The notes beneath the pieces are model-generated. The model saw only the letters and a program-made list of their open reading frames with translations, ran no database searches and had not been told where the DNA came from. A DNA stretch of 64,000 nt from NCBI GenBank assembly GCA_964429815.1, contig CAYSCM010000001.1:192001-256000 (forward strand), in the 5' to 3' direction. This DNA comes from an uncultured Candidatus Saccharibacteria bacterium. Its GTDB lineage: Bacteria > Patescibacteriota > Minisyncoccia > Phycocordibacterales > CAYSCM01. Every line of letters begins with the position of its first letter. Within the stretch, counting starts at the first letter, position 1. Position numbers and translations under genes: made by a program. Below are positions 2,019-47,530 of this stretch, one piece after another.

Positions 2019-3851
2019 CTATTTATTCGCCTCGGCCTCGAGCTCCTGGCGGGCCTTTTTAATAGCGAGAATTTGGCTCGGATCGGAGGTGATGATTTGA
2101 TCTTCGGTATAAGAGGCGATGATTTTGATGGCGACGTGTTTGAGGCCGGCAAAGAATATCCCCTCTCCCACGTCCGATTCCAGGAGCAGGTACTTTTCCT
2201 CGTCGGTGAGGTTAAACGTTTTCTGCACGTTGTCGATGGAGGTTGGCGATTGCTTCAGCAGCAGCTGAATGGAGGAGTTGGTTATCATAGGGAGCCCGTA
2301 GGGAGAGTTCAAGAAATCAGAAACGTCTTGCGTGATGGTGGCAAGACCCAGGAAGTATTTGCGCCCGCGTTTGGCGACCGAAAAGAGGAAACTCGCCGTA
2401 TCCTCGCTCTGCATCATCCAGTGCGCTTCATCGACGATAAAGAGGCGTTTCTTGAGCTCCTTGCGCACTGCGGTCCAGATGAAGTGCGTGACGATGTACA
2501 TGGCGACGGGCTTGAGCTCATCCTCCATGTCGCGCACGGAGAATACGACAAAATTTTTGTTGATATCGACATTGGTCGGGCGATTGATGAAACCTGCCCA
2601 CGTACCCTTGGTGTACTTGGAGAGGCGCTGCACGAGCGACTCGGAGCCTTCCATTCCGGCGAGCACGAGCTCGAAGTCGGAGAGGAGCGGCGGCTCGATG
2701 CTGGTGAAGTCGCTCTCCCCCGTTATGTCCTTGAGCGCATAGGTTTCCGTGATAGCCCGGTCGATGATGGAGTCTTCCTCCGGCGTTAGGCCGCCGAGCA
2801 TGATGCGGAACAGGCCCACGAGATTCACGATGTTGCTTCGAAGCACGTCGCCGGGAGCTTCGTCTTCCCGCGGGGTCGGCAGGTCGAAGGGGTTGATGTG
2901 GTGCTCGGAGGTGAGGGATATGTTGAAGTAGCGCCCACCGACGGCGTCCGCCATGTACTCGTACTCACGCTCAGGGTCGATGACAATGACCTCGGTGCCG
3001 AACATAAGGGAGCGCAAAATTTCGAGCTTTACCGCGTAGGATTTGCCGGCGCCGGATTTTGCGAACGTCACCGAGTTGTAGTTTTCGAGGCTAAAGCGAT
3101 CAAAGAGGATGAGGGAGCTGTTGTGGCGGTTGATGCCGTAGAGAATTCCCTTGTCGGAAGTGAGATCGAAGGAGACAAAGGGAAAGAGCGAGGAGAGCGG
3201 CGAGGAGTTGAGCTTCGTGTGCACGGAGAGCTCATCGGAGGCTATGGGAAGTACGGAGCGGAACCCCTGCTCCTGCTGAAAGAGCGCGGGCTTCACGTAG
3301 ATGAGGCGGCTCTCGAGCATGGTCTTTATCTCGCTCTCCACCTTGTCGAGCTCTTCCTGCGAGTTGCCATAGATAGAAATGTAAAGCCCGACATCGAAGA
3401 GTTTCTCTTGCGCCTGCTGGAGCTGGTCGCGGAGCGATTCAAGGTCACGATAGGCGGTGTCGAGCATTGGATCGCGCACGAGCCCGCGCTCCTCTCGGGT
3501 CGTGATCTGACTTTGCACCTCCGCGACCTTTTTTTGGAATTTCCGAAGCACTGTAGCGGTGTCCGCCGGATGCACGAATATGGATACGTCGAAGACCCGA
3601 TCGAGATTTATGATGGGAGCAAACCAGGAATCCGCGAGGTAGCGTGGGTAGGAAATAACAAATAGCGTGCGCACCAGCTTGTCGCCGAGATTCATCTCCC
3701 GCGGGGTGATCTTGAGCGCTGAAGGGGCGATGATGTCGTGGAACTCAAGCGCTCCCGCTTCATAGATTTCCTGCGGCAAAATGGGAGTGACCGGGACTTC
3801 CCTCCTCTTTTTCCCGCCCAAGCCTCCTGTGAGAAAATCAAGTAGAGCCAT
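2019..3851 (-). CDS. VirB4/TrbE/CagE-family type IV secretion ATPase
   Basis: 610 aa. Walker A FAKSGAGKSYAVK and Walker B FIVDEAHWMM. Length and domain order are typical of Gram-positive-type VirB4 (PrgJ/TcpF-like). Confidence 0.8.
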   Translation of the reverse strand: MALLDFLTGGLGGKKRREVPVTPILPQEIYEAGALEFHDIIAPSALKITPREMNLGDKLVRTLFVISYPRYLADSWFAPIINLDRVFDVSIFVHPADTATVLRKFQKKVAEVQSQITTREERGLVRDPMLDTAYRDLESLRDQLQQAQEKLFDVGLYISIYGNSQEELDKVESEIKTMLESRLIYVKPALFQQEQGFRSVLPIASDELSVHTKLNSSPLSSLFPFVSFDLTSDKGILYGINRHNSSLILFDRFSLENYNSVTFAKSGAGKSYAVKLEILRSLMFGTEVIVIDPEREYEYMADAVGGRYFNISLTSEHHINPFDLPTPREDEAPGDVLRSNIVNLVGLFRIMLGGLTPEEDSIIDRAITETYALKDITGESDFTSIEPPLLSDFELVLAGMEGSESLVQRLSKYTKGTWAGFINRPTNVDINKNFVVFSVRDMEDELKPVAMYIVTHFIWTAVRKELKKRLFIVDEAHWMMQSEDTASFLFSVAKRGRKYFLGLATITQDVSDFLNSPYGLPMITNSSIQLLLKQSPTSIDNVQKTFNLTDEEKYLLLESDVGEGIFFAGLKHVAIKIIASYTEDQIITSDPSQILAIKKARQELEAEANK

Positions 3852-9737: not shown

Positions 9738-12182
9738 TTATGGAATCCTACCGAGAGTGTGGAAGAGACGTCCCCCTTGGCTATTTCCAAAGTTTGCTAG
9801 CGCAAGTATGGCAGGATCGGTCGCACCCGCGTTTCGGCGATTAATTACTTCTTGCATAATGGCATTACCAGCACCCACATCAGCGCCTGCTTTCATCATT
9901 TCTCGAAGCGCTTCTTGTTTTAGGTGAGGAACAAGCTCGGGAAGGAGGGTGGCTCTCGTACTTGAATCGTCATAGAGACCCAGCGCCATTTTGGCCATTG
10001 CCTTGGGATCAACCCGCAACTTCTTAATATCCGTACCAAAGGTTCCAATCGCTCCATGGCCCAGAGACTCTTTAAGGAAATCCCCTCGCTGTTTACCAAG
10101 TGCCGCTTTAATACTGGCGGCGATCTTGTCGCTTTTCATAACCTCGTCGTATTTATCCTGGGACAGTGTCCTCGCCAAGGTGTCGATTTGTCCAGCGAGG
10201 GCCTTTTCAGTAATTATGAGCTCGAGCTCTTTATTGTTTACCTTGTCGAATTTCTTTATTAACTCCTCGTCTTCCGCTGAAAGATGGCCAGGAATTGCGG
10301 CCGCTGCCGCACGTGCAGCATTTTCCAGAAGTTCTTTGTGACGAGCGGTGGTTACTTTATCGCGCATTTCGTCGGTGTACTTATCATTTTTCACATCAGA
10401 TATGGATAGATACTGTGAAGAGGTAAGATTCTTCGCTACCCAGTCTTTTGTCAAAGTCTTCACCCCCAAAGAGGCCAGCTGCGTATCACTCATCGCACCA
10501 AGAGCTCGAAGACCTTTTGCTTCAGCTTCTTGTTTTTGTGCGTCTGTGTATTTTGTTGGATTCTCACTGATCTCAATCGCGCGCTCAATGTCGTCGCGGA
10601 AGTCTGCCTCCCTGCGTACCGCAGCACGCCCGAGCTTTTCCTTCTTAACCTCTTCCTTGATCGCGACTCCTGATTTAGTCGTTCCAAACTTAGCACCTGC
10701 AATTAGGCCGGTGGTGTACTTGCGGGCAAGGGAACCCAACTGGGTCCCACCAATAAGGCGTGACTGAGCGAGCCTTTGATCAAGGTTCGCAATGGGCCTG
10801 CCAATTGCATTGCGGGCCAGGAAGCCACCGCCGTATTTGCCGATAGATTTTACAGTAAAGTTGATTGCATTCAGGCCTTCATTGCCAATTTTTTTTGCAA
10901 CCGATAGGGTTAGAAGTGATAATCCAATAACAACTGCAAAGTTTATTAGCAATTGGATTGATCCGGGGGCAGTAGCCGCCGAGCTTCCGTCCGCTAGGTC
11001 CGCAAACGTTCCATTACCAATAGCGGTTTGAAATGCTGGATTTTTCATTACACCCAACACGAACCACAATAATCCAAAGTAGGCCGGTAGCATTATCGCA
11101 TTTGACCAAAGCGCCCCCCACCACTGGTTCCATAGTCCACCGAAGAAGGGTAAAAAACGAGCAAGCACAGCTAACGGAGAGGTGACCATTAGCACAAGGA
11201 ATACAATAATTCGCCCAATTATATGTAAAGCAGCGATGAGGAATGAATAGGCAAGGATTATAAAGAGAATGCAGCCAAGCATACTCAAAAGAAAACTATT
11301 GCCATTACTGAGCAGGGCGGCCGCCCTACTGCCGGTGAAGTTTTTCAAATCATATAAAGACCCCATCCGTAAAACTTGCATAAACTGTCCCGATAGCCCG
11401 ACATCCGAGTTTAGAAATTGATCAGTCTGCCCCTTCGCAAGTAACTGAGTGTAGAACTGTGTTGAAATATAATTACTTGCATCGATTACGACCCTTGTTA
11501 GAGCGAAGCTAAAATTTATCAGTAACGCCGCTATTACCACGTTCGCCAAAAGTTTTTTTGCCCCGTATTGTTGTACCCGCAATATGGTGGAAATGCCGAT
11601 AATCAAAAGGCTGAAAATAAGAACAATATTCGCCACATCACGAATGGTCATCCAAAATCCGTCGAGAGTACCGAAGGTCTTTATTGTTGTTCCAAAGTCA
11701 AGAACACCCCACACCACCACCTTGTTCAAGAAGAACCCGGCAACTCCCAGAATCCAAGCAAACAAGGTTAGGAATGCGTACCCAATACATCCGATGGAAA
11801 TATCAGGAATAAAGCCGACGTACGGGTCACAGTTGGGTGGCTTACTTCGTATATCGTCACCCTTTTTCTTTGAGGCATCGGCTGCTTGTGTATCGGTACT
11901 TTCCCTTACGTCTGCATCACTCACAGCGTCACCCTTTACGGTAATTAAGGAACCATCGGCCGCACGATAAAAATACGGATCAGTTATGTTTTTCCCTGGG
12001 CCAAGCAATGTATAGGTCTTTCCATTCCAAGTGCAAGCTGGGGGGTAGTTGTTTGCGCCAGTGGCTGTGCAAAGAGGGTCCGCGGCGAGAGCAACTTCTG
12101 TATGTAGTGAAAAGCCATACCCAACCACAAAAGACTTTAAGATGAAAATTGTGAGTAGTAATGTTGAAACAGCTTTTCTCAT
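9738..12182 (-). CDS. VirB6/TrbL-like polytopic membrane protein with signal peptide, extracellular N-domain, about 8 TM helices and 380-aa hydrophilic C-terminal tail
   Basis: 814 aa. Topology (signal peptide, about 8 TM helices, long charged Lys/Glu-rich tail) resembles conjugation-channel VirB6/TrbL proteins. Assignment is by architecture and context, not by a signature motif. Confidence 0.45.
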   Translation of the reverse strand: MRKAVSTLLLTIFILKSFVVGYGFSLHTEVALAADPLCTATGANNYPPACTWNGKTYTLLGPGKNITDPYFYRAADGSLITVKGDAVSDADVRESTDTQAADASKKKGDDIRSKPPNCDPYVGFIPDISIGCIGYAFLTLFAWILGVAGFFLNKVVVWGVLDFGTTIKTFGTLDGFWMTIRDVANIVLIFSLLIIGISTILRVQQYGAKKLLANVVIAALLINFSFALTRVVIDASNYISTQFYTQLLAKGQTDQFLNSDVGLSGQFMQVLRMGSLYDLKNFTGSRAAALLSNGNSFLLSMLGCILFIILAYSFLIAALHIIGRIIVFLVLMVTSPLAVLARFLPFFGGLWNQWWGALWSNAIMLPAYFGLLWFVLGVMKNPAFQTAIGNGTFADLADGSSAATAPGSIQLLINFAVVIGLSLLTLSVAKKIGNEGLNAINFTVKSIGKYGGGFLARNAIGRPIANLDQRLAQSRLIGGTQLGSLARKYTTGLIAGAKFGTTKSGVAIKEEVKKEKLGRAAVRREADFRDDIERAIEISENPTKYTDAQKQEAEAKGLRALGAMSDTQLASLGVKTLTKDWVAKNLTSSQYLSISDVKNDKYTDEMRDKVTTARHKELLENAARAAAAAIPGHLSAEDEELIKKFDKVNNKELELIITEKALAGQIDTLARTLSQDKYDEVMKSDKIAASIKAALGKQRGDFLKESLGHGAIGTFGTDIKKLRVDPKAMAKMALGLYDDSSTRATLLPELVPHLKQEALREMMKAGADVGAGNAIMQEVINRRNAGATDPAILALANFGNSQGGRLFHTLGRIP

Positions 12183-34978: not shown

Positions 34979-35050
34979 GCCCCCGTGGTGAAATGGATAT
35001 CACAACTGGCTTCGGACCAGTTATTGTGGGTTCGAGTCCTGCCGGGGGCG
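34979..35050 (+). tRNA. tRNA-Arg (anticodon UCG)
   Basis: Manual cloverleaf. Acceptor GCCCCCG/CGGGGGC, D-stem GUGA/UCAC, anticodon stem ACUGG/CCAGU with loop CUUCGGA, T-arm GUGGG-UUCGAGU-CCUGC, discriminator G, no encoded CCA. Confidence 0.85.
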
Positions 35051-35253
35051 CAAACGGCACAAAACGCGGTGCATTTTGCGCGTTTGCGCCAGGCGGAGCG
35101 ATGTTTTGCGAGTACACAAAACCGTGAGCCGAGGCCGCGAAAATTCTGAGCGACGACGAAAAACTATTTTTGTGACCGCCTCGGCGTCGGGTGACAGATT
35201 CTAGATTGAGAAAGCACTGACGCGTGCTATAGTTTCCCCGAAGTATAAAGCAG

Positions 35254-35324
35254 GCGGCCATAGTTTAGTGGTAGGACGGATCCTTGCCAAGGATCAGGTG
35301 GGAGTTCGATTCTCCCTGGCCGCA
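35254..35324 (+). tRNA. tRNA-Gly (anticodon GCC)
   Basis: Manual cloverleaf. Acceptor GCGGCCA/UGGCCGC, anticodon stem GGAUC/GAUCC with loop UUGCCAA, T-arm GGGAG-UUCGAUU-CUCCC, discriminator A. Confidence 0.85.
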
Positions 35325-35348
35325 CAAAAGGACACTTCCCTACGGGGT

Positions 35349-35363
35349 CAGGGAGAATCGAAC
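35349..35363. repeat. inverted copy (CAGGGAGAATCGAAC) of the tRNA-Gly T-arm/3' segment GTTCGATTCTCCCTG (35304..35318)
   Basis: 15-nt perfect reverse complement 30 nt downstream of the tRNA. Confidence 0.6.
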
Positions 35364-35462
35364 GGGAAGGGGTCGGGAAACGGCAGTTTCCCGCGGAGGC
35401 GGAGGAAGGCAGGCAAAGCCTCTGGAAAACCTGGGTTTCCAGAGAGTGAGATAGCGGGGCGT

Positions 35463-35479
35463 CTCCCTGGCCGCACAAT
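35463..35479 (+). repeat. 17-nt direct repeat of the tRNA-Gly(GCC) 3' end (TCTCCCTGGCCGCACAA, identical to 35311..35327)
   Basis: Exact 17-nt match 152 nt downstream of the tRNA. Resembles an att-site duplication left by tRNA-targeting integration. Confidence 0.6.
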
Positions 35480-35610
35480 ACGTAATAAACTTTTCTTACA
35501 TGGCCTGTCTCATAGAAAACTCATAATTTGAGCGTTTCTGTGGATAAATCTGTGAGTATGTGTATTAAGGACAGTCCTATAACCAAAGAATGGCTTTAAA
35601 TCCGTAAAAG

Positions 35611-35656
35611 TTTCACGTGAAAATTAGTTACACGTGAAAATGTTACATGTGAAATG
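35611..35656 (+). repeat. three direct repeats TT(T/A)CACGTGAAAAT at 16-17-bp spacing upstream of the yraN-like gene
   Basis: tttCACGTGaaaat / ttaCACGTGaaaat / ttaCATGTGaaat. Confidence 0.5.
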
Positions 35657-35666
35657 GCAATCCACA

Positions 35667-36047
35667 ATGAACGAACTGGGAAGACTCGGAGAGGACATTG
35701 TTTGCCGCTATCTTTCTGATAGGGGGTATCGGATTGTTTCAAGGAACTATCGTAAAAAGTGGGGTGAAATTGATGTAATTACGACTAAGGGCGGAATCCT
35801 CCATTTCATTGAAGTTAAAGCTGTTTCGCGTGAAAATCTTGACTCAATTTCACAAGAAACAAATTCCTATCGTCCAGAGGACAATGCTCATCCGGAAAAG
35901 CTCAGACGCCTTGCAAGAACCGTTGAAACATATTTACTGGAAAAAGGTGTAGAAGGTGGGCAGTGGAGATTTGATGTTGCGGCTGTCTATATCGATCAGA
36001 GGAAAAAGAAGGCAAAAGTTTCTCTTCTCGAGAACGTTATTTTATAG
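35667..36047 (+). CDS. yraN: YraN-family (UPF0102) putative endonuclease
   Basis: ORF 35634..36047 with likely start MNELGRLGEDIVCRYL. Motif GEIDVI...FIEVKA typical of YraN. Confidence 0.6.
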   Translation: MNELGRLGEDIVCRYLSDRGYRIVSRNYRKKWGEIDVITTKGGILHFIEVKAVSRENLDSISQETNSYRPEDNAHPEKLRRLARTVETYLLEKGVEGGQWRFDVAAVYIDQRKKKAKVSLLENVIL

Positions 36048-36104
36048 GACATTATTAAGGACATGTCTTTTGGCGCTCAACCGTGCTATGATTTTGCCAA
36101 CCAT

Positions 36105-36146
36105 GGGGCGTGGTGTAACGGCTAACATACCCGCGTGGGGAGCGGT
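36105..36146 (+). repeat. partial duplicate (5' half: acceptor, D-arm and anticodon stem) of the downstream tRNA-Pro; pseudo-tRNA fragment
   Basis: 30 nt identical (GGGGCGTGGTGTAACGGCTAACATACCCGC) to 36167..36196, then diverges. No T-arm can form. Confidence 0.6.
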
Positions 36147-36165
36147 TTTCCTTCGAGTTCTTCGT

Positions 36166-36238
36166 CGGGGCGTGGTGTAACGGCTAACATACCCGCTTTG
36201 GGAGCGGGCGACTCCCGGTTCGAATCCGGGCGCCCCGA
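36166..36238 (+). tRNA. tRNA-Pro (anticodon UGG) with C1-G72 base pair and A73 discriminator
   Basis: Manual cloverleaf. Acceptor CGGGGCG/CGCCCCG, anticodon stem CCCGC/GCGGG with loop UUUGGGA, T-arm CCCGG-UUCGAAU-CCGGG. C1:G72 is a known bacterial tRNA-Pro identity feature. Confidence 0.85.
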
Positions 36239-36275
36239 CGAAGCATTTGAATAGACGCGCTTAAGCATGTCTTTT

Positions 36276-37415
36276 CTATTGGGGGAGCTGGTCGGTGAGG
36301 AGCTTGGTAAGAGTCGGCGCTACGGTCGCCTGAAAAGTCGCCGCTTGCACCGCGATATCGGCGGAGAGCATGCCACGAAGAGAGGTGCCGCTTCCCGCGA
36401 TAAGAGAGCGATTTATGTGTGCAAGAGTGATGGCATGGAGGTCGCGAATGTCGGTCGTCGGGCCGTCCGAGCTTGTCGAAACGATACCCACGAGGTCGCC
36501 CTTTGAGGAAAAAACACCACCGCCTGAAGAGCCTTTTTGCGCCACAACAGAGCCGCCGATCGAAATGACATCGATGGTCGAGGTGTCGAAGGTGAACACC
36601 TCTTTGATGGTGGTATAGGCCGAACTTACATACAGGTCTCGCAAGATGGTCTCCGCTCCGAGAAAGCCCGCAGGGTAGGCGGCAACGAGCATCGTGGCAC
36701 CTACCGTGAAGGCGTTTTCCGAGGTATCTAGCGAAGTCGCGGGGAATTGCGCTGGGAGCTGGTCGCTTGGGTTGGTGGGGGCGGTCACATAGAGGAGCGC
36801 AAAGTCATTTTCTCCCGTGCCGACCGGCTCGGTACTCTTTATCTGTGGGGCATTGTCACGCACCCACTGCGGCGAAATGTAGAGGAGACCTAGCTTGTAA
36901 CGCGGATATGCTGGGCTTCCGGTGCGAGCAACGCACTCCACAAAGTTGGGCATCGGGTAGTCTTTGAGGAGAAGGTACTGGCCCACGTGGGCATTGGCAA
37001 GAATAACTCCGCGCGAGTCGATAAAGACGCCGCTGGCGGTTATAGGACTAATGACCCCGCCGTACCTCGTGGTGCAGAGAATATTGACGATAGAGGGACG
37101 AGCTACCGCGTTGACGTCAATGCTTGCGTTTGTTGGCGCGGGTGGGGGTGGTGGCGTGAGAACAGTAACTTTTTGGGTTGGGACAGGAGATGCAGACTGA
37201 GCTTTTTTTGCCTCGGGTTTTTGAGTGAGCGTGGCAGCTTGCGTGGTTGTTGCTTGTGTTTGCGCGGCGGTAGTCGCTATTGCCCGGCCTTTCTCAGGCG
37301 GGGGCGCTAGTCGGGGAGTTCCCGGCAGGAGAGTAGAAAGCAGAGCGAGTGTACCTAGAAAAATGCTGAGGAGTAGCTTTCCCGTTAGTGAGTAGATGGC
37401 GGTAAGAAGCGACAT
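36276..37415 (-). CDS. membrane-anchored trypsin-like (S1/chymotrypsin-family) serine protease
   Basis: 379 aa. N-terminal TM/signal anchor, Pro/Thr/Ala-rich linker, protease core with ANAHV (His) and GSSGGGVF (Ser) motifs. Confidence 0.65.
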   Translation of the reverse strand: MSLLTAIYSLTGKLLLSIFLGTLALLSTLLPGTPRLAPPPEKGRAIATTAAQTQATTTQAATLTQKPEAKKAQSASPVPTQKVTVLTPPPPPAPTNASIDVNAVARPSIVNILCTTRYGGVISPITASGVFIDSRGVILANAHVGQYLLLKDYPMPNFVECVARTGSPAYPRYKLGLLYISPQWVRDNAPQIKSTEPVGTGENDFALLYVTAPTNPSDQLPAQFPATSLDTSENAFTVGATMLVAAYPAGFLGAETILRDLYVSSAYTTIKEVFTFDTSTIDVISIGGSVVAQKGSSGGGVFSSKGDLVGIVSTSSDGPTTDIRDLHAITLAHINRSLIAGSGTSLRGMLSADIAVQAATFQATVAPTLTKLLTDQLPQ

Positions 37416-37492
37416 GCGCGGTCAGTATACCAAAGAGAGTGAAGTGTTTTTCTTTTACTTTTTGTTTGCTACAGTTGCCTTCGAGACGAAAT

Positions 37493-37563
37493 GCGGGCAT
37501 AGTTTAGTGGCAAAATGGGATCCTTCCAAGATTCGGTCGCCGGTTCGATTCCGGCTGCCCGCA
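37493..37563 (+). tRNA. tRNA-Gly (anticodon UCC)
   Basis: Manual cloverleaf. Acceptor GCGGGCA/UGCCCGC, anticodon stem GGAUC/GAUUC with loop CUUCCAA, T-arm GCCGG-UUCGAUU-CCGGC, discriminator A. Confidence 0.85.
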
Positions 37564-43278: not shown

Positions 43279-43650
43279 GGACGTTGAGCACGAACAGATG
43301 TTGGAGGCGACTAGGCTGCCCCCACAGGTCTACCGCCAGTTTACCAGCCGGACGGATCGCCTGGATCCAGTCTCATTTTGTCTGCCGCCACCTTTGGGCG
43401 GCAAAGAACTTTTTTGCCGCTTTCGCATGGCGGCCCTTCCATCAAACCCGGGTTTGGAACTGGGCTTTCCCGGCAGTACCCAGGTCGGTCAGGCGCACGC
43501 CTTAACCGATCCGCAGAAAGTCTAGCATATCGAACAAAATTTGTAAAGGTTCTGCAAAATAAGGTCAGTTAAAATTGACATTACTATTTTAAAAAATGGC
43601 TTTAAATATAGAGATTTTTATTACTTCATGATATAATTTGTCAAAAGCAC

Positions 43651-43679
43651 TTGACAAAAATATAGGCGGCGCTATAATG
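43651..43679 (+). promoter_or_regulatory. perfect consensus sigma70 promoter TTGACA-17-TATAAT
   Basis: -35 at 43651..43656, -10 at 43674..43679, spacer exactly 17 nt. Embedded in a 140-bp AT-rich island within a GC-rich genome. Confidence 0.6.
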
Positions 43680-43685
43680 CCGTTG

Positions 43686-44850
43686 TCAGTGTGAGCTAAC
43701 AGGTTGGTAACCTGCATAAGCATCTTGTTTGTCCATCCTCTGGACCCCGCAGCCATTCGCTTTGTGCAGCTGTATCGTGGGCCGCTGGACGCGGCTTTTC
43801 TTGATGCTCGGTTTCGACCTTAGCTCACCCTGTTCGTTTCACAATAACCCTGCTCGCTGCTTTCGCAGCCAGCAGTGCCCTCGGAAGAAATTCTGTGTGC
43901 ACTGTTGGCTGTGGAGAGCCAGTAGCCCCGCAAGGGGGTATAGGTGACGAAGGCGTCCTCTTCGTTGCCGGCTACTTTCGTAGCCAAGTCTCCACGTGTA
44001 TGGAAACGGTGCCCTCGGAAGGGGGACTTCACATCGTTCCTACACGGCCGAGCCCTTGCAAGGGGCAGAGTCGTTAGAAATCGATAGCGGCTTGCAACCG
44101 CGATGCGATGGAAAGTCAGGAGGCGAAGTGTACAGATCGCAAGTCTGTGCATGGATCTCCTCACGCCTGGCAAAGGACAGTGGGATCATGAAAAGATCTT
44201 GCTGATGCCAATAGTGAGGGAATCGGATGAGCGTCGGGCCATGCCCCAATCCCTGCGCCGGTGGGACGGCGCAGGTGGAAAAGGGGAGCGGTTACGCACC
44301 GCATGGAGGAAGCCCTGGCCGGGGTGGATTCCAAGAAGCTCATTCGAGGATAAAAGGCACAGCATATGCCTTCGACCCAAGGGGCGACCCAAGGGATATG
44401 CGGTCAGAACCGGCAGCTGTCAGCAACAGCGGTCCATCTGGGCAGTACATGCGCCCAGCGATGTCGGTCGGGAACATTGGCCTTATGTTCCGTCTCCCAC
44501 ATTTTCGCTTGTTCCTTCAGGTTTGTGCCAAGGGTGTCCACGGCAAAGTTGGCGGCTCTCCAGCCGCCAACGTGTCCGGCGGCATCCGGGCAACCCAGTG
44601 CACGGAGGTGCACGAAATGGATTGGTCTCGCTGAGGACCAGTGCACGTACCATCTTTTAGGGTACGGGTGCAGAGGAGTGTTGTCGCGATGCCCGCGGCC
44701 GCGCTCCTCATCAGTTGCTTCGCGAGATGTGTGTCTCGCCTGATGAGCTTGAAAGAGCGAAAAGCACAGTTCTCTATACATGCAAATTGAGTCGTTTGAA
44801 GAGGATGCTGCCGCTTCTTCCTCAAACGACTCAATCGCCACGGAAGGAGG
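43686..44850 (+). ncRNA. candidate large structured non-coding RNA (class unknown) downstream of the consensus promoter; about 1.15 kb with no credible ORF
   Basis: All ORFs in this stretch are short, overlapping on both strands and Arg-rich (a GC-rich non-coding signature). Local hairpins are present (CAGGTT-GGTA-ACCTG). The 13-nt motif GTGCCCTCGGAAG occurs twice. There are weak resemblances to RNase P CR-I, CR-II/III and CR-V motifs, but P4 pairing does not work. Confidence 0.25.
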
Positions 44851-44856
44851 GACCCG

Positions 44857-45060
44857 ATGAGCGACATTTGCGTTGTCTCCGAGAACGGGCACGTTCTCGG
44901 CACCCACTCGTGGGTGGAGGGGTTCAAGCCCCTCAAGGTGTCCAGCCGCACAAGCGAGATAGATGTGCTCGCCCACGCGCTCTATCTGGAGCGCACGGTC
45001 TCTTCGGAGGCTGGCCTCGAGTACATCGAGGTGTGGGAGAAGCGCAAGCTTCTTCGCTAG
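44857..45060 (+). CDS. small hypothetical protein (67 aa)
   Basis: Strong RBS GGAAGGAGGG 6 nt upstream of the ATG. Confidence 0.4.
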   Translation: MSDICVVSENGHVLGTHSWVEGFKPLKVSSRTSEIDVLAHALYLERTVSSEAGLEYIEVWEKRKLLR

Positions 45061-45251
45061 CGGTTATGCCGGGAGAGGAGGGGGGATCCTCGCATACCGG
45101 CGGGGGTGAAACTTCACCTTGGCAACAGAAGATTTCTCGGACCACACCCCTACATAGTCAGAGAAATCAAGTTTTGGGCGATGATGAATCGCCCTCTCCA
45201 CTGCGCACATGAATCCTTCGTGTGCGAAGACGAGATCTTTGGGAGGAAACC

Positions 45252-45569
45252 ATGACCGAATCGAGCTCCGTGCAGAGCGCGCCCCGCACGTGCGTCTCCT
45301 GCGGGAGGCCGGGCGCCAAGTGGGATCTCAGTGTTGGCGGGAAACTGCCGGTGCCGGCCCACAAACCCTGCGCGGAGATAATCCGCGCGACCGCGCCGCA
45401 AGGTACGGTCGTGACGGTCAAACCGTCACCCGAACTCCGCGAGGAGTGGGCTCGTGAAAACGCCCGCAAGTTCTGGGAAGGCCAGAACAAACTCGGCGCG
45501 GCCTTACAAGCCGCAGGGGTCACGCTGCCGAAATCCGGAAACGGATCGCTCGGCGGGGGTGGGAGCTAA
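45252..45569 (+). CDS. small hypothetical protein with CxxC motif (MTESSSVQSAPRTCVSCGRPG...)
   Basis: RBS GGGAGGAAACC directly upstream of the ATG at 45252. 105 aa. Confidence 0.4.
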   Translation: MTESSSVQSAPRTCVSCGRPGAKWDLSVGGKLPVPAHKPCAEIIRATAPQGTVVTVKPSPELREEWARENARKFWEGQNKLGAALQAAGVTLPKSGNGSLGGGGS

Positions 45570-45678
45570 TCCATCCTGGCAACAGAAACAAAAATCCGCG
45601 TGGCGAACGTTCCTCGCCATTTCTTTTGAGTTCGCGAATCCTCGTGGGCTCATCGAAATAGCTCTTTGGGAGATACAG

Positions 45679-45996
45679 ATGCGCTACGTTGCAAATGCTT
45701 TTTCACTCAACATGCTTGCCTCGCTTTCGGCAACAATCAACTCGGTCGCGATCGGCGCGCGTGAGGCCGCCGCGTGGGCCGAGGGTGCTCAGTCGATCGT
45801 GGGTCACCCCGATACGGCCGCAGTGATGAGTGCGACGCTCGGGACCCCCGTTCAGTTCAATCGCGAGAGTGTGCAGCTCAGGCCGGGCGACGAGCTTCTT
45901 GTGGGCCAATACCGTGGCCCTCGGCTCCCGGAAGGGGCAAAAGTCCTTCCGGAAGGCGCTCGCTTCGAGTGGGCGCACGTCAAAATCATCGCGTAA
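45679..45996 (+). CDS. small hypothetical protein (105 aa)
   Basis: Internal start MRYVANAF of ORF 45454..45996 with GGGAGA RBS. Confidence 0.35.
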   Translation: MRYVANAFSLNMLASLSATINSVAIGAREAAAWAEGAQSIVGHPDTAAVMSATLGTPVQFNRESVQLRPGDELLVGQYRGPRLPEGAKVLPEGARFEWAHVKIIA

Positions 45997-46263: not shown

Positions 46264-46494
46264 ATGGACAAGTTCGTTGCGTTTGTGCTCGCGAGGCTCT
46301 GCGCGCCGCGCAGATCCGCCTCGAAGCGAAGCGCAACGTCGAGCAGCGTTTTGCGGCATAGCGACGCAACAGCTCTTTTAAGAAAGGAGGGTCGCCATGA
46401 ACAGGCGACTAAGTACAAGCTACGCGACCATCACTCACGGGGTGGTCGCTTTATTTTTGAGACTCGAGAAATTCGATCGCTTTTTGGTTGGTGA
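46264..46494 (+). CDS. possible small ORF (76 aa) overlapping the 3' end of tig
   Basis: RBS GGAGG 7 nt upstream of the ATG. Basic composition. Overlaps the convergent tig by 44 nt. Confidence 0.2.
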   Translation: MDKFVAFVLARLCAPRRSASKRSATSSSVLRHSDATALLRKEGRHEQATKYKLRDHHSRGGRFIFETREIRSLFGW

Positions 46495-47530
46495 GTGCGT
46501 TCGCGACATAGGCACGAACACGGTTTTCGTCAGCGCCCTTGTGGTGCTCAAGGAGGTGCTTTGCTTCACCGGCGATTTCCTCGGGAGAGGGAAGAAGGTT
46601 CTCGCGTATAGCGATTTCGTGGAGTATGAGCTGGAGCCTAGCTCTCTTTTCAGCGTCGGGGCGCCACTCTTTTCTCAAATCATCCTCGCTCTTTTTTATA
46701 TGCGCAAGATAGTCATCGAACTTTCCGCCGAAGCGCTCAACATCGTCGCGAAACTGCAGGAGGAGCTTTCCGAGCTCGCTTTCAACGAGAAGCTCAGGGG
46801 TATCAAAGGAGCTTCCCGCAACGATGGCTTCCATAATGGCACTTCGACGCGATTCGATGGCCCGGCGGCGTTTGTCTTTCACGAGGTCCTCGCGCAGCAT
46901 CTTCTTGAACTCGTCGACGGAGGCGAAAGGACCGAGGGCTTTTACGAACTCATCGGTTATTTCGGGAAGGATTTCCTTGTCACCCTCCCTAGATGCTGAC
47001 GCATCGGGCGAACCTCCGTCTTCGGCGGAGGTTTTAGCCTTCGTCGCTTTGCTTTTGCGCAACTGCGTGAGGGCGTCGTCGAACTCTTTGTCAGTGACCT
47101 CGAACGTCTCCGGAACTTTTTCCTGTTTCATCGCGAGCTTTTTATAGTCAGGAAGAGCGATGTCCGGCTTAACGGTAACGACGATAGAAAAACCGACTGG
47201 ATTTCCCGGTGCAAGCTTGGTGATTGCGATGCGCGGCTCTCCGAGCGGTATGAGCTTGTGCTCCTCTATGAGTTTTGGATAGAGCTCAGAGAGCGCCTCC
47301 TTAGAGGCTTCTTCGAGGAGCGCCATCTCGTCGACCCGCTGGAGGACCATTTCTTTCGGGGCCCTGCCGGGACGAAAGCCGGGAAGTTTGGCCTCTTTCA
47401 CAAAGTGTTCGAGCGCATGCTCACGCAGCCGCGCTATGGTAGCGGTCGGAATTTCGCCGGTGATGATGACGATCGAGCCCTTTTCCTTCTTTACGGAAAT
47501 GTTTTCGTACATGAAATCCGAGTCTAGCAA
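46451..47530 (-). CDS. tig: trigger factor (short form, apparently lacking the FKBP-type PPIase domain)
   Basis: 359 aa. N-terminal ribosome-binding signature GFRPGRAPK and C-terminal helical arm region. No FKBP-like segment recognised. Start may be the internal MYENIS. Confidence 0.75.
   Translation of the reverse strand: MLDSDFMYENISVKKEKGSIVIITGEIPTATIARLREHALEHFVKEAKLPGFRPGRAPKEMVLQRVDEMALLEEASKEALSELYPKLIEEHKLIPLGEPRIAITKLAPGNPVGFSIVVTVKPDIALPDYKKLAMKQEKVPETFEVTDKEFDDALTQLRKSKATKAKTSAEDGGSPDASASREGDKEILPEITDEFVKALGPFASVDEFKKMLREDLVKDKRRRAIESRRSAIMEAIVAGSSFDTPELLVESELGKLLLQFRDDVERFGGKFDDYLAHIKKSEDDLRKEWRPDAEKRARLQLILHEIAIRENLLPSPEEIAGEAKHLLEHHKGADENRVRAYVANALTNQKAIEFLESQK

Follow-up and report, generated by a model that had tools for sequence, protein, structure and literature searches.

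To our knowledge, bacterial noncoding RNAs (ncRNAs) longer than about 500 nucleotides (nt) and of ribozyme-like complexity are very rare. Each known class (RNase P, group I and group II introns, OLE, GOLLD, ROOL and HEARO) has proved to be either catalytic or architecturally unprecedented. The covarying and palindromic kissing loops of GOLLD, ROOL and OLE turned out to bridge molecules, and palindromic GGCC loops serve intermolecular kissing in OLE and GOLLD (PMC12286853). Here we describe a large structured RNA encoded in a 64-kilobase (kb) stretch of contig CAYSCM010000001.1 from an uncultured patescibacterium. We refer to this entire stretch as the window, and coordinates given without a locus name are positions in it. 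The core of the RNA occupies positions 43861 to ~44510 of the + strand (~650 nt) and constitutes a conserved, noncoding, structured RNA whose family is not represented in Rfam. A preliminary description, made from the letters of the window, had proposed a large structured ncRNA of unknown class behind a consensus promoter; the homologs, the covariation and the lack of a coding signal reported below bear this out. We found no large RNA described in Patescibacteria in the literature.

A conserved RNA core with compensatory base changes

Homologs of the core were sought on contigs carrying the two homolog clusters of a 67-residue protein encoded downstream of the RNA, and then by looking up nine further variants of the TrmB-like regulator encoded upstream (related loci are numbered with the prefix L). 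The neighborhood of the 67-residue open reading frame (ORF) led to the lineage L012–L016, in which a 0.7-kb segment resembles positions 43905 to ~44500. Full-length homologs were placed by blastn and nhmmer at L013 2060–2760 and L122 7660–8340. The L122 segment and L013 share 75% identity over 544 nt, and pairwise identities over the core are 52–68%; the alignment decays after about column 690. A fourth lineage (L117) provides the 5' end only: its contig ends just inside the RNA, after a leader that can be aligned with that of the window. Copies within each lineage are identical, and the independent material comprises three full-length sequences and the L117 fragment.

Relative to shuffled sequences, the minimum free energy (MFE) of positions 43860–44530 has a z-score of −6.3 on the + strand and −3.7 on the − strand; the L122 copy scores −5.1. 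RNAalifold predicted 191 pairs for the three sequences, 61 of them compensatory. To curate the structure, all column pairs were scanned for runs that pair in all three sequences, which gave 113 pairs in 19 helices, with standard pairs in 95.5% of the cells. Both sides have changed in 43 of the 113 pairs, compared with 16.4 ± 3.3 in shuffles, none of which reached 43 (0/500). Sliding the 3' partners by 1–3 columns leaves 2–12 such pairs and 40–48% of the cells paired. Manual checking of seven further helices, mis-registered by MAFFT, showed complete pairing in each of the three sequences, the sole exception being one U–U mismatch in P6a of L013 and L122; several of these helices covary. Helix P7 illustrates the pattern (CCUCAC/GUGAGG, CCUUGG/CCAAGG and CCUCGG/CCGAGG), as does the base of P5 (GUGUA/UACAC, CAUGU/GCAUG and CGGUA/UACCG). 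The comparison that the preliminary description had suggested, namely a search for homologs and for covariation, finds the RNA conserved in other genomes with compensatory changes.

The strand of the fold follows from its wobble pairs. On the + strand, 45 cells are G–U; read on the − strand, a single wobble would remain and 59 cells would become mismatches. The folded strand is therefore the + strand, which is also the strand transcribed from the promoter.

The core is not protein-coding

The preliminary description had called every ORF in this stretch short, which is not literally true: the + strand contains ORFs of 185 (44103–44660), 135 and 125 amino acids (aa), the − strand one of 190 aa, and the 185-aa ORF is annotated as a gene in public assemblies. 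None of the ORFs of the stretch has a Pfam match, and the 185-aa product retrieved no homolog except itself from 5.8 billion protein clusters. The 185-aa ORF is not kept in the homologous RNAs. Over the homologous 670–700 nt, each of the three homologs contains 3–11 stops per frame in all six frames, and in L013 and L122 every frame is interrupted by all three stop codons. Mismatches are distributed flatly over positions modulo 3 (71/73/68 for L013 versus L122), and indels are mostly 1 or 2 nt and mostly not multiples of 3. Because stops occur in all frames, codon periodicity is lacking and indels of 1–2 nt prevail, a gene, a pseudogene and a recoded gene are excluded for the core. The view that the region is noncoding and not a decayed gene, already put forward in the preliminary description, is confirmed by the homologs, the covariation and this lack of a coding signal.

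The core matches no catalogued RNA family

We searched Rfam 15 with the whole window at gathering score, and with four sub-regions and eight related loci at E ≤ 10; relaxed-filter runs at E ≤ 10 covered the 0.7-kb segments 43850–44540 and L013 2050–2780. The gathering-score and E ≤ 10 runs returned only tRNAs, hairpin and microRNA noise, and a sub-threshold hammerhead; with relaxed filters, the two segments yielded nothing beyond hairpin-type noise. Since no family matches the core at E ≤ 10, its class stays uncatalogued, as had been anticipated. Group I and group II introns, GOLLD, ROOL, OLE, HEARO, tmRNA, 6S and signal recognition particle (SRP) RNA were not detected in the region. A group II intron-like RNA, one of the alternatives raised initially, finds no Intron_gpII or group-II-D1D4 match at E ≤ 10. 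We rejected this candidate also on context, as no gene is split: the core lies between the promoter and an intact ORF in the window and between two intact ORFs in L013. Elsewhere in the related loci, L118 2040–2326 (− strand) matches a group I intron at 49.8 bits versus a gathering score of 50 (E = 7e-10), between genes for a CYTH-domain protein and a serine recombinase.

Within the related loci, the RNA is patchily distributed. An nhmmer search over the related TrmB loci with a three-sequence profile, and a search of 229 kb of these loci with a covariance model of the central domain (R1), recovered the known copies only. The RNA is absent at this locus from six well-covered related lineages (L004, L118, L123, L127, L131 and L132), whose long leaders are different sequences, because both searches matched the known copies only. 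Only four of the lineages compared carry the RNA, and the others have unrelated sequence after the promoter. Large collections were scanned with exact patterns. In viral contigs, exact patterns of conserved blocks gave 59 chance matches for a 16-mer and none for two composite patterns; GTDB genomes gave 10 chance matches and no new copy; and JGI metagenomes gave 31 matches, of which only the L014 contig, known beforehand, was real. Scanning viral contigs with the TrmB and 67-aa protein alignments as anchors yielded nothing, blastn matched no phage or plasmid record, and the RNA had no match in the IMG/VR, phage and plasmid collections. The family may be wider than seen here, as the large-collection searches were restricted to exact patterns.

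Architecture of the core RNA

The core comprises at least 25 helices (Table 1). Its most conserved part is the domain closed by AUGAGC/GCUCAU (44226–44344), which contains four covarying hairpins. A 10-base-pair (bp) helix at 44128–44152, with five compensatory pairs, is capped by CGCAA, a GNRA-type loop. One loop–loop and one loop–strand contact are predicted, and both covary. The kissing loops KL1 are exactly complementary in each lineage, with UUGCAA × UUGCAA in the window, where the loops are palindromic, UUGGCG × CGCCAA in L013 and UUGGUG × CACCAA in L122. PK2 forms a pseudoknot across the P7/P8 domain, its downstream partner being a hairpin loop (UGCUG/CAGCA in the window, UGUCG/CGACA in L013 and L122). 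The two GGCC loops could additionally pair with each other (GGCCR × UGGCC) or with their own copies.

Between the helices lie invariant single-stranded blocks: GGAAAGU, AUGAGCGUCGG, AAARGGGGAGC, CCAAKAAGCUCAYUC and GCGGUCC. The fold also appears to contain alternatives. An invariant pairing between GUGGAGA (43911–43917) and UCUCCAC (43989–43995) competes with the base of P1, and around 44070–44109 two mutually exclusive pairings both covary. Some features are specific to the lineage of the window. The duplicated 13-mer noted in the preliminary description is indeed present, with GTGCCCTCGGAAG at 43875 in the apical region of P1 and at 44009 in P5, and CGACCCAAGGG is tandemly duplicated at 44373–44395 in the variable upper part of hairpin P16.

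A conserved promoter architecture downstream of a TrmB-like gene

A promoter scan identified a sigma-70 promoter with 12 of 12 matches in its TTGACA and TATAAT hexamers. The preliminary description had located both hexamers correctly but gave the spacer as 17; it is 16. As it had also noted, the promoter lies in an AT island, with 28% GC over the 160 bp at 43520–43680 versus 57% for 43685–44856, and it faces ~1.17 kb without a credible gene. Palindromes of the form TGTCA-N8-TRAC match five times in the window, with four of these matches falling within the three operator sites and 0.31 expected for the whole window. The same two or three sites were found again in more than 30 related loci.

In the window and in all of the related loci retrieved, a promoter of this type is immediately preceded by a gene encoding a TrmB-like protein; this gene forms the conserved left flank of the island described below. 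The protein has 1,258 homologs at E ≤ 1e-30, the named ones belonging to Paceibacteria, Kaiserbacteria and Adlerbacteria. It is the presumed repressor of the island promoter, its link to the operators being one of adjacency only. Across Paceibacteria (window, L004, L013, L118, L122, L123, L125, L127, L132 and others), the architecture downstream of this gene consists of cTTGACAAAA...TATAAT under TGTCA-N8-TRAC palindromes at the −35 element and the start site, 45 bp apart, often with a third palindrome ~75 bp upstream. In the related islands, the promoter is always followed by 0.6–1.4 kb of ORF-free sequence and then by small same-strand ORFs.

Several of these ORF-free leaders are unrelated to the large RNA. 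Those of L118 (6748–8141) and L123 (4939–6329) share a block of ~200 nt, 84% identical, just upstream of a gene for a CxxC protein, and their conserved first ~230 nt also occur in L125, L127 and L130; such leaders may be other structured RNAs in the same position. A third 5' leader type, ~200 nt long and 67% identical, is shared by L004 (1760–1955) and L122 (7180–7379), whose islands otherwise differ. On the other side of the regulator, Adlerbacteria-type loci have a TROVE/Ro60–vWA gene (L118 3793–5373, L119 1728–3308 and L121 1267–2847) as the next gene upstream, oriented divergently from that for the TrmB-like protein. Bacterial Ro60 genes usually have Y-like RNAs nearby; Rfam detected none beside these Ro60-type genes.

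Transcript segments flanking the core

The predicted transcript starts near 43685, and the core is preceded by a leader domain that is shared with L117 only (L117 5207–5402), with 7 of 28 predicted pairs compensatory, and has no counterpart ahead of the core in L013 or L122. A terminator-like hairpin lies inside this leader at 43779–43797. On the 3' side, a lineage-specific extension leads to a motif resembling a type III hammerhead ribozyme. This motif scores 31.5 bits against Rfam Hammerhead_3 (E = 2.7e-4 in a 1.9-kb search), which is below the gathering score of 48.5. Its catalytic core is complete: CUGAUGA at 44741–44747, GAAA at 44760–44763, and UUC with C44721, providing a U–C cleavage dinucleotide. 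Stem III (UGCUU/AAGCA, 5 bp) is open, stem I (GCGAGA...UCUCGC, 6–7 bp) is capped, and stem II (GCUU-GAAA-GAGC, 4 bp) has a GAAA loop and the G10.1–C11.1 pair. The MFE structure of the isolated 59 nt is exactly the hammerhead fold (−15.7 kcal/mol). With upstream context, however, CUCAUCAG (44705–44712) pairs with the CUGAUGAG core, and the alternative hairpin wins (−27.9). No second hammerhead was retrieved with a simple descriptor, either elsewhere in the window or across 229 kb of related loci, and the contig of the closest relative, L117, ends before the corresponding position. We regard the hammerhead as probably real, its activity being a prediction; if active, it would separate a ~1.04-kb noncoding RNA from the mRNA.

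A variable island of small genes

The RNA belongs to a variable island between the TrmB-like gene, which is preceded by genes for ClpP, RNase Y and HU, and a convergent trigger-factor gene. No recombinase was found between 42.4 and 47.6 kb. The first gene of the cassette encodes the 67-aa protein, in which the motifs GHVLGTHxWVxGFKP and VSSEAGLE are conserved; its AlphaFold model, with a predicted local distance difference test (pLDDT) score of 65, is too poor for a fold search. PHROGs and PADLOC matched only the B116-like protein (Csx16-like) and the helix-turn-helix (HTH) of TrmB.

Module order differs between lineages. In the window, the RNA is followed by the 67-aa, CxxC and B116-like proteins. 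L004 has the CxxC protein and then a 72-aa protein, without the RNA; in L013 an 82-aa homolog of the 67-aa protein precedes the RNA; and in L122 another small ORF does. The L013 RNA has a terminator-like hairpin on its 3' side, and a similar hairpin on its 5' side was read from the sequence and not scored. In L127 and L132, the same flanking genes enclose different sets of small + strand ORFs.

Structured motifs recur between the small genes. A hairpin followed by (U)UGGCAACAGAA is found after ORFs in seven other island types: L004 (3150–3185), L013 (4095–4128), L118 (8750–8785), L123 (5970–6005 and 6935–6970), L125 (5255–5290), L127 (8580, 10200 and 10805) and L128. The UUCUUUUGAG hairpin often follows the UGGCAACAGAA motif, and in L013 its sites are 2884–2915 and 3335–3370. 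These intergenic motifs could be processing, termination or recombination signals that mark module borders; they do not flank the large RNA.

The wider neighborhood contains four + strand tRNA genes (34979, 35254, 36166 and 37493; region 34979–37563), 6–9 kb upstream of the RNA. They adjoin the gene for the CCA-adding enzyme, and the same tRNA/CCA-enzyme/UPF0102 neighborhood stands beside TrmB in L122, L123 and L125. In L004-type elements, a large serine recombinase gene and its 333-aa neighbor occur on opposite sides of the TrmB island and in opposite orientation on two contigs (L005 10522–13011 and L008 63–2639), which perhaps points to a circular or invertible element; the end of the L008 recombinase gene is overlapped by a tRNA. 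At the far end of the L123 island (10227–10938), a tyrosine recombinase is interrupted by a LAGLIDADG intein.

Table 1 Features of the locus, with positions in the window
Feature	Position	Strand	Remarks
TrmB-family winged-helix regulator, 250 aa	42486–43238	+	Pfam PF01978, E = 3.4e-14
Promoter/operator region	43564–43700	+	−35 at 43651–43656, −10 at 43673–43678, three palindromes
TGTCA-N8-TRAC palindromes	43564–43580; 43639–43656; 43684–43700		Second overlaps −35; third at predicted start
5' leader domain, hairpin-rich, ~175 nt	43685–43860	+	MFE z-score −3.6
P1, long 5' hairpin	43861–43916	+	
P2, GNRA hairpin CCCC-GCAA-GGGG	43926–43937	+	
Kissing loops KL1	44056–44061 × 44092–44097	+	6 bp, covarying
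P6	44119–44160	+	
P7	44159–44164 / 44214–44219	+	
Pseudoknot PK2	44200–44204 × 44421–44425	+	
P10	44226–44232 / 44338–44344	+	Closes central domain
GGCC loops	44316–44321; 44477–44485	+	UGGCCG; UUGGCCUUA
P18	44471–44491	+	
Lineage-specific 3' extension	44511–44713	+	Run of hairpins (e.g. 44532–44587); inverted repeat I2; not conserved in L013/L122
Type III hammerhead-like motif	44714–44768	+	Predicted cleavage after C44721
Long imperfect hairpin, 23-nt arms	44786–44835	+	Inverted repeat I1, 87% complementary; z-score −3.75; just upstream of ribosome-binding site
Ribosome-binding site GGAAGGAGG	44842–44850	+	Strong; precedes 67-aa ORF
67-aa ORF, first cassette gene	44857–45060	+	Two homolog clusters only, 59% and 52% identity
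Intergenic motif, hairpin + UGGCAACAGAA	45099–45130; 45556–45587	+	Direct repeat D1
CxxC protein, 105 aa	45252–45569	+	tblastn homologs in L004, L118, L123
Intergenic motif, hairpin + UUCUUUUGAG	45600–45630	+	Terminator-like
STIV_B116-like/Csx16-like protein	45679–45996	+	Pfam PF08960, E = 4e-8; PADLOC Csx16, 4.6e-10; phrog_5063
Terminator-like hairpin + T-run	46424–46449	+	Right island end; abuts trigger-factor gene
Trigger-factor gene	46451–47530	−	Pfam annotation in identical contig L001

Proposed role and alternative explanations

With a probability of roughly 0.55, we favor the reading that the core represents a new class of autonomous, GOLLD/ROOL-like ornate large RNA that acts in trans and is not a cis-regulator, a function that we infer from the analyses above. 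The RNA would be made from the promoter at 43651–43678 as the 5' part of a polycistronic transcript, with the promoter gated by the adjacent TrmB-like regulator via the three operators over the −35 element and the start. Self-cleavage of the hammerhead after C44721 would free it from the downstream mRNA for the 67-aa, 105-aa and B116-like proteins. The freed RNA would then function in trans, folded into a self-contained particle of the sort proposed for GOLLD and ROOL, and it may form homo-oligomers through its complementary and palindromic loops. It would not regulate a particular gene in cis, and it behaves as one interchangeable module of the small-ORF island between the TrmB and trigger-factor genes. 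A free-standing RNA is preferred over a leader because its place among the genes varies and because it is missing from islands that have the same genes. The GGCC loops together with the palindromic UUGCAA loops are suggestive of homo-oligomers, and self-assembly is a reasonable hypothesis by analogy, since kissing loops bridge molecules in GOLLD, ROOL and OLE.

Several points weigh against this reading. Only three independent full-length sequences are known, and the covariation statistics are optimistic, as the structure was chosen on the same alignment on which it was then scored; the margin is nevertheless large. We infer the transcript ends from sequence features. The hammerhead lies below the gathering score, was found in a single lineage and competes with a more stable fold, and the connection between TrmB and the operators is one of proximity. 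The kissing loops may be purely intramolecular, with trans action and multimerization hypothetical. Finally, no terminator separates the RNA from the downstream ORFs in the window and in L122, which fits a cis role as well.

A bolder version of the favored reading is possible, if doubtful as a whole: the RNA would represent a class of ornate large RNA found in Patescibacteria (the candidate phyla radiation, CPR) alone, the first of its kind, and a free-standing cassette in a regulator-gated, integron-like array that is cut out by a hammerhead and then acts as an RNA-only multimer via kissing loops or as a new large ribozyme. Among the novel readings, a catalytic role is the main alternative, and a cis-acting leader is the main conventional rival.

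As such a leader, the RNA would be a very long riboswitch, attenuator or processive antitermination element for the downstream small ORFs, which we consider unlikely. It is co-oriented with these ORFs and placed between them and the promoter, with no terminator before 46424 and a terminator-like hairpin in the leader domain; L122 also has the RNA inside an operon, and every related island has 0.6–1.4 kb of ORF-free sequence after the same promoter. However, the RNA of L013 lies downstream of the homologous 82-aa gene, with its terminator-like hairpin on the 3' side, an arrangement that disfavors the long 5' leader considered in the preliminary description. L004, moreover, keeps the promoter and both small-protein homologs without the RNA, and known leaders come nowhere near ~650 nt with at least 25 helices and tertiary loop–loop pairs.

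A large ribozyme of a new class, processing itself or acting on other RNA or DNA, would have its active site in the conserved junction strands. Invariant blocks combined with GNRA loops and pseudoknots are the pattern of large ribozymes such as group I and group II introns and RNase P, and the long invariant single-stranded blocks between covarying helices, the multiple GNRA loops and the pseudoknots of the core conform to it. Yet the core matches no catalytic RNA family, no exon-like gene halves flank it, and no chemistry can be proposed from its sequence alone; we judge this explanation quite improbable.

It is very unlikely that the element functions as single-stranded DNA, for instance as an attC-like recombination site or as a rolling-circle or priming origin. 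The lineage-dependent module order, the repeated hairpin motifs between ORFs, the large serine recombinase of L004-type loci and the tyrosine recombinase of L123 would suit such a site, and the same RNA-or-DNA question was posed by Weinberg et al. for the DUF1874 motif (PMC5737381). Against it stand the 12/12 promoter that points into the element and the 45 G–U pairs. In addition, no known recombination site resembles an element of 650 nt with conserved unpaired blocks, the window has no recombinase next to it, and the intergenic repeats are not found at its borders.

A divergent RNase P RNA retains the slimmest of chances. The three RNase P-like strings listed in the preliminary description are present (GGAAAGTC at 44110, GGTGGAAAAGGGGAGCGGTTACGCACC at 44274 and AGAACCGGC at 44406), the CR-II/III-like segment spanning 44274–44300, and the CR-I-like GGAAAGUC (44110) is conserved in the homologs. 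The description had stopped short of RNase P for want of a P4 pairing, and the comparison now leads us to reject it. No RNase P model matches at gathering score in the 64 kb, or at E ≤ 10 in 43400–45300, 43850–44540 or L013 2050–2780. The 'CR-V' string is not conserved (AAAGGCAGC in L013, AAAGGUGGC in L122), and the all-column scan shows no covarying partner of GGAAAGU that would form P4 between CR-I (GGAAAGUCC...) and CR-V (ACAGAAnCCGGCUUA). The 3' part of the 'CR-II/III' string, CGCACCGC, forms the 3' side of a covarying hairpin of ordinary type (GCGG/CCGC, GCGU/GCGC and GCCG/CGGC). The location of the RNA in a variable island and its absence at this locus from six well-covered related lineages are likewise unlike an essential housekeeping RNA.

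A decayed gene, or a gene in a variant genetic code, can be dismissed in spite of the annotated 185-aa ORF, given the stops, the lack of codon periodicity and of protein homologs, and the compensatory nature of the helix changes.

Should the favored reading hold, a new CPR class would carry the short list of large bacterial RNAs into a vast and uncultured section of the bacterial tree. At ~650 nt, the RNA has a size suited to cryogenic electron microscopy (cryo-EM), for which predicted loop–loop contacts are already in hand. It would also tie a large RNA to an undescribed genomic device that recurs across Paceibacteria, in which a TrmB-gated promoter drives a variable set of tiny ORFs. The hammerhead, if true, would be an example of a ribozyme that splits an ncRNA from an mRNA on one transcript.

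Comparison with known systems

The new RNA resembles RNase P RNA (RF00010/RF00011) in being large and multi-helical, and its GGAAAGU and GGUG-AAA-GGG-GCGGU strings recall CR-I and CR-II/III. Unlike RNase P RNA, it has no covariance model match, no P4 and no conserved CR-V, and it is not universal among relatives. The similarity to the type III hammerhead (RF00008) is confined to 44714–44768, where the full catalytic core and three stems are found; the differences are a score of 31.5 versus 48.5 bits, the lack of homologs showing conservation and the more stable competing hairpin.

OLE RNA (RF01071) is likewise highly structured and ~600 nt long, and the palindromic GGCC-type loop through which OLE dimerizes has a counterpart in the new RNA. 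In contrast to OLE, it has no Rfam match and no oapA/ybzG-type partner genes, and it is patchily distributed, whereas OLE is a core gene of extremophilic Firmicutes.

The island is also reminiscent of integron-like arrays. Weinberg et al. noted a cassette-like arrangement for the DUF1874 motif (PMC5737381), and the island carries a DUF1874 (STIV_B116-like) gene together with short same-strand ORFs, a recurring structured intergenic motif, one strong promoter and a variable module order. It differs from these arrays in that the large RNA is not the repeated intergenic motif. The Rfam DUF1874 motif has no match at E ≤ 10, and no integron integrase, attI or attC was identified in the island.

The closest systems in kind are GOLLD (RF01998) and ROOL (RF03087). 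The preliminary description had listed a GOLLD/ROOL/OLE-type RNA among its alternatives; the likeness in kind stands, and membership does not, as no sequence or structure of these families matches at E ≤ 10. GOLLD and ROOL are hosted by Lactobacillales and by rumen or marine phages, whereas the new RNA is hosted by Patescibacteria, in a chromosomal TrmB-gated island and not in a recognizable prophage. Like ornate RNAs, and again as a resemblance in kind and not as membership, the core exceeds 500 nt, is multi-helical and covariation-supported, and has tertiary loop–loop pairs. With GOLLD and ROOL it shares a size in the range of ~600–800 nt, dozens of helices, GNRA loops, pseudoknots and kissing loops, the absence of an evident partner protein and a location on variable or mobile DNA, here with a tRNA cluster 6–9 kb away. 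Bridging between molecules, as in the nanocages seen by cryo-EM (PMC12286853), could be mediated by its complementary and palindromic loops.

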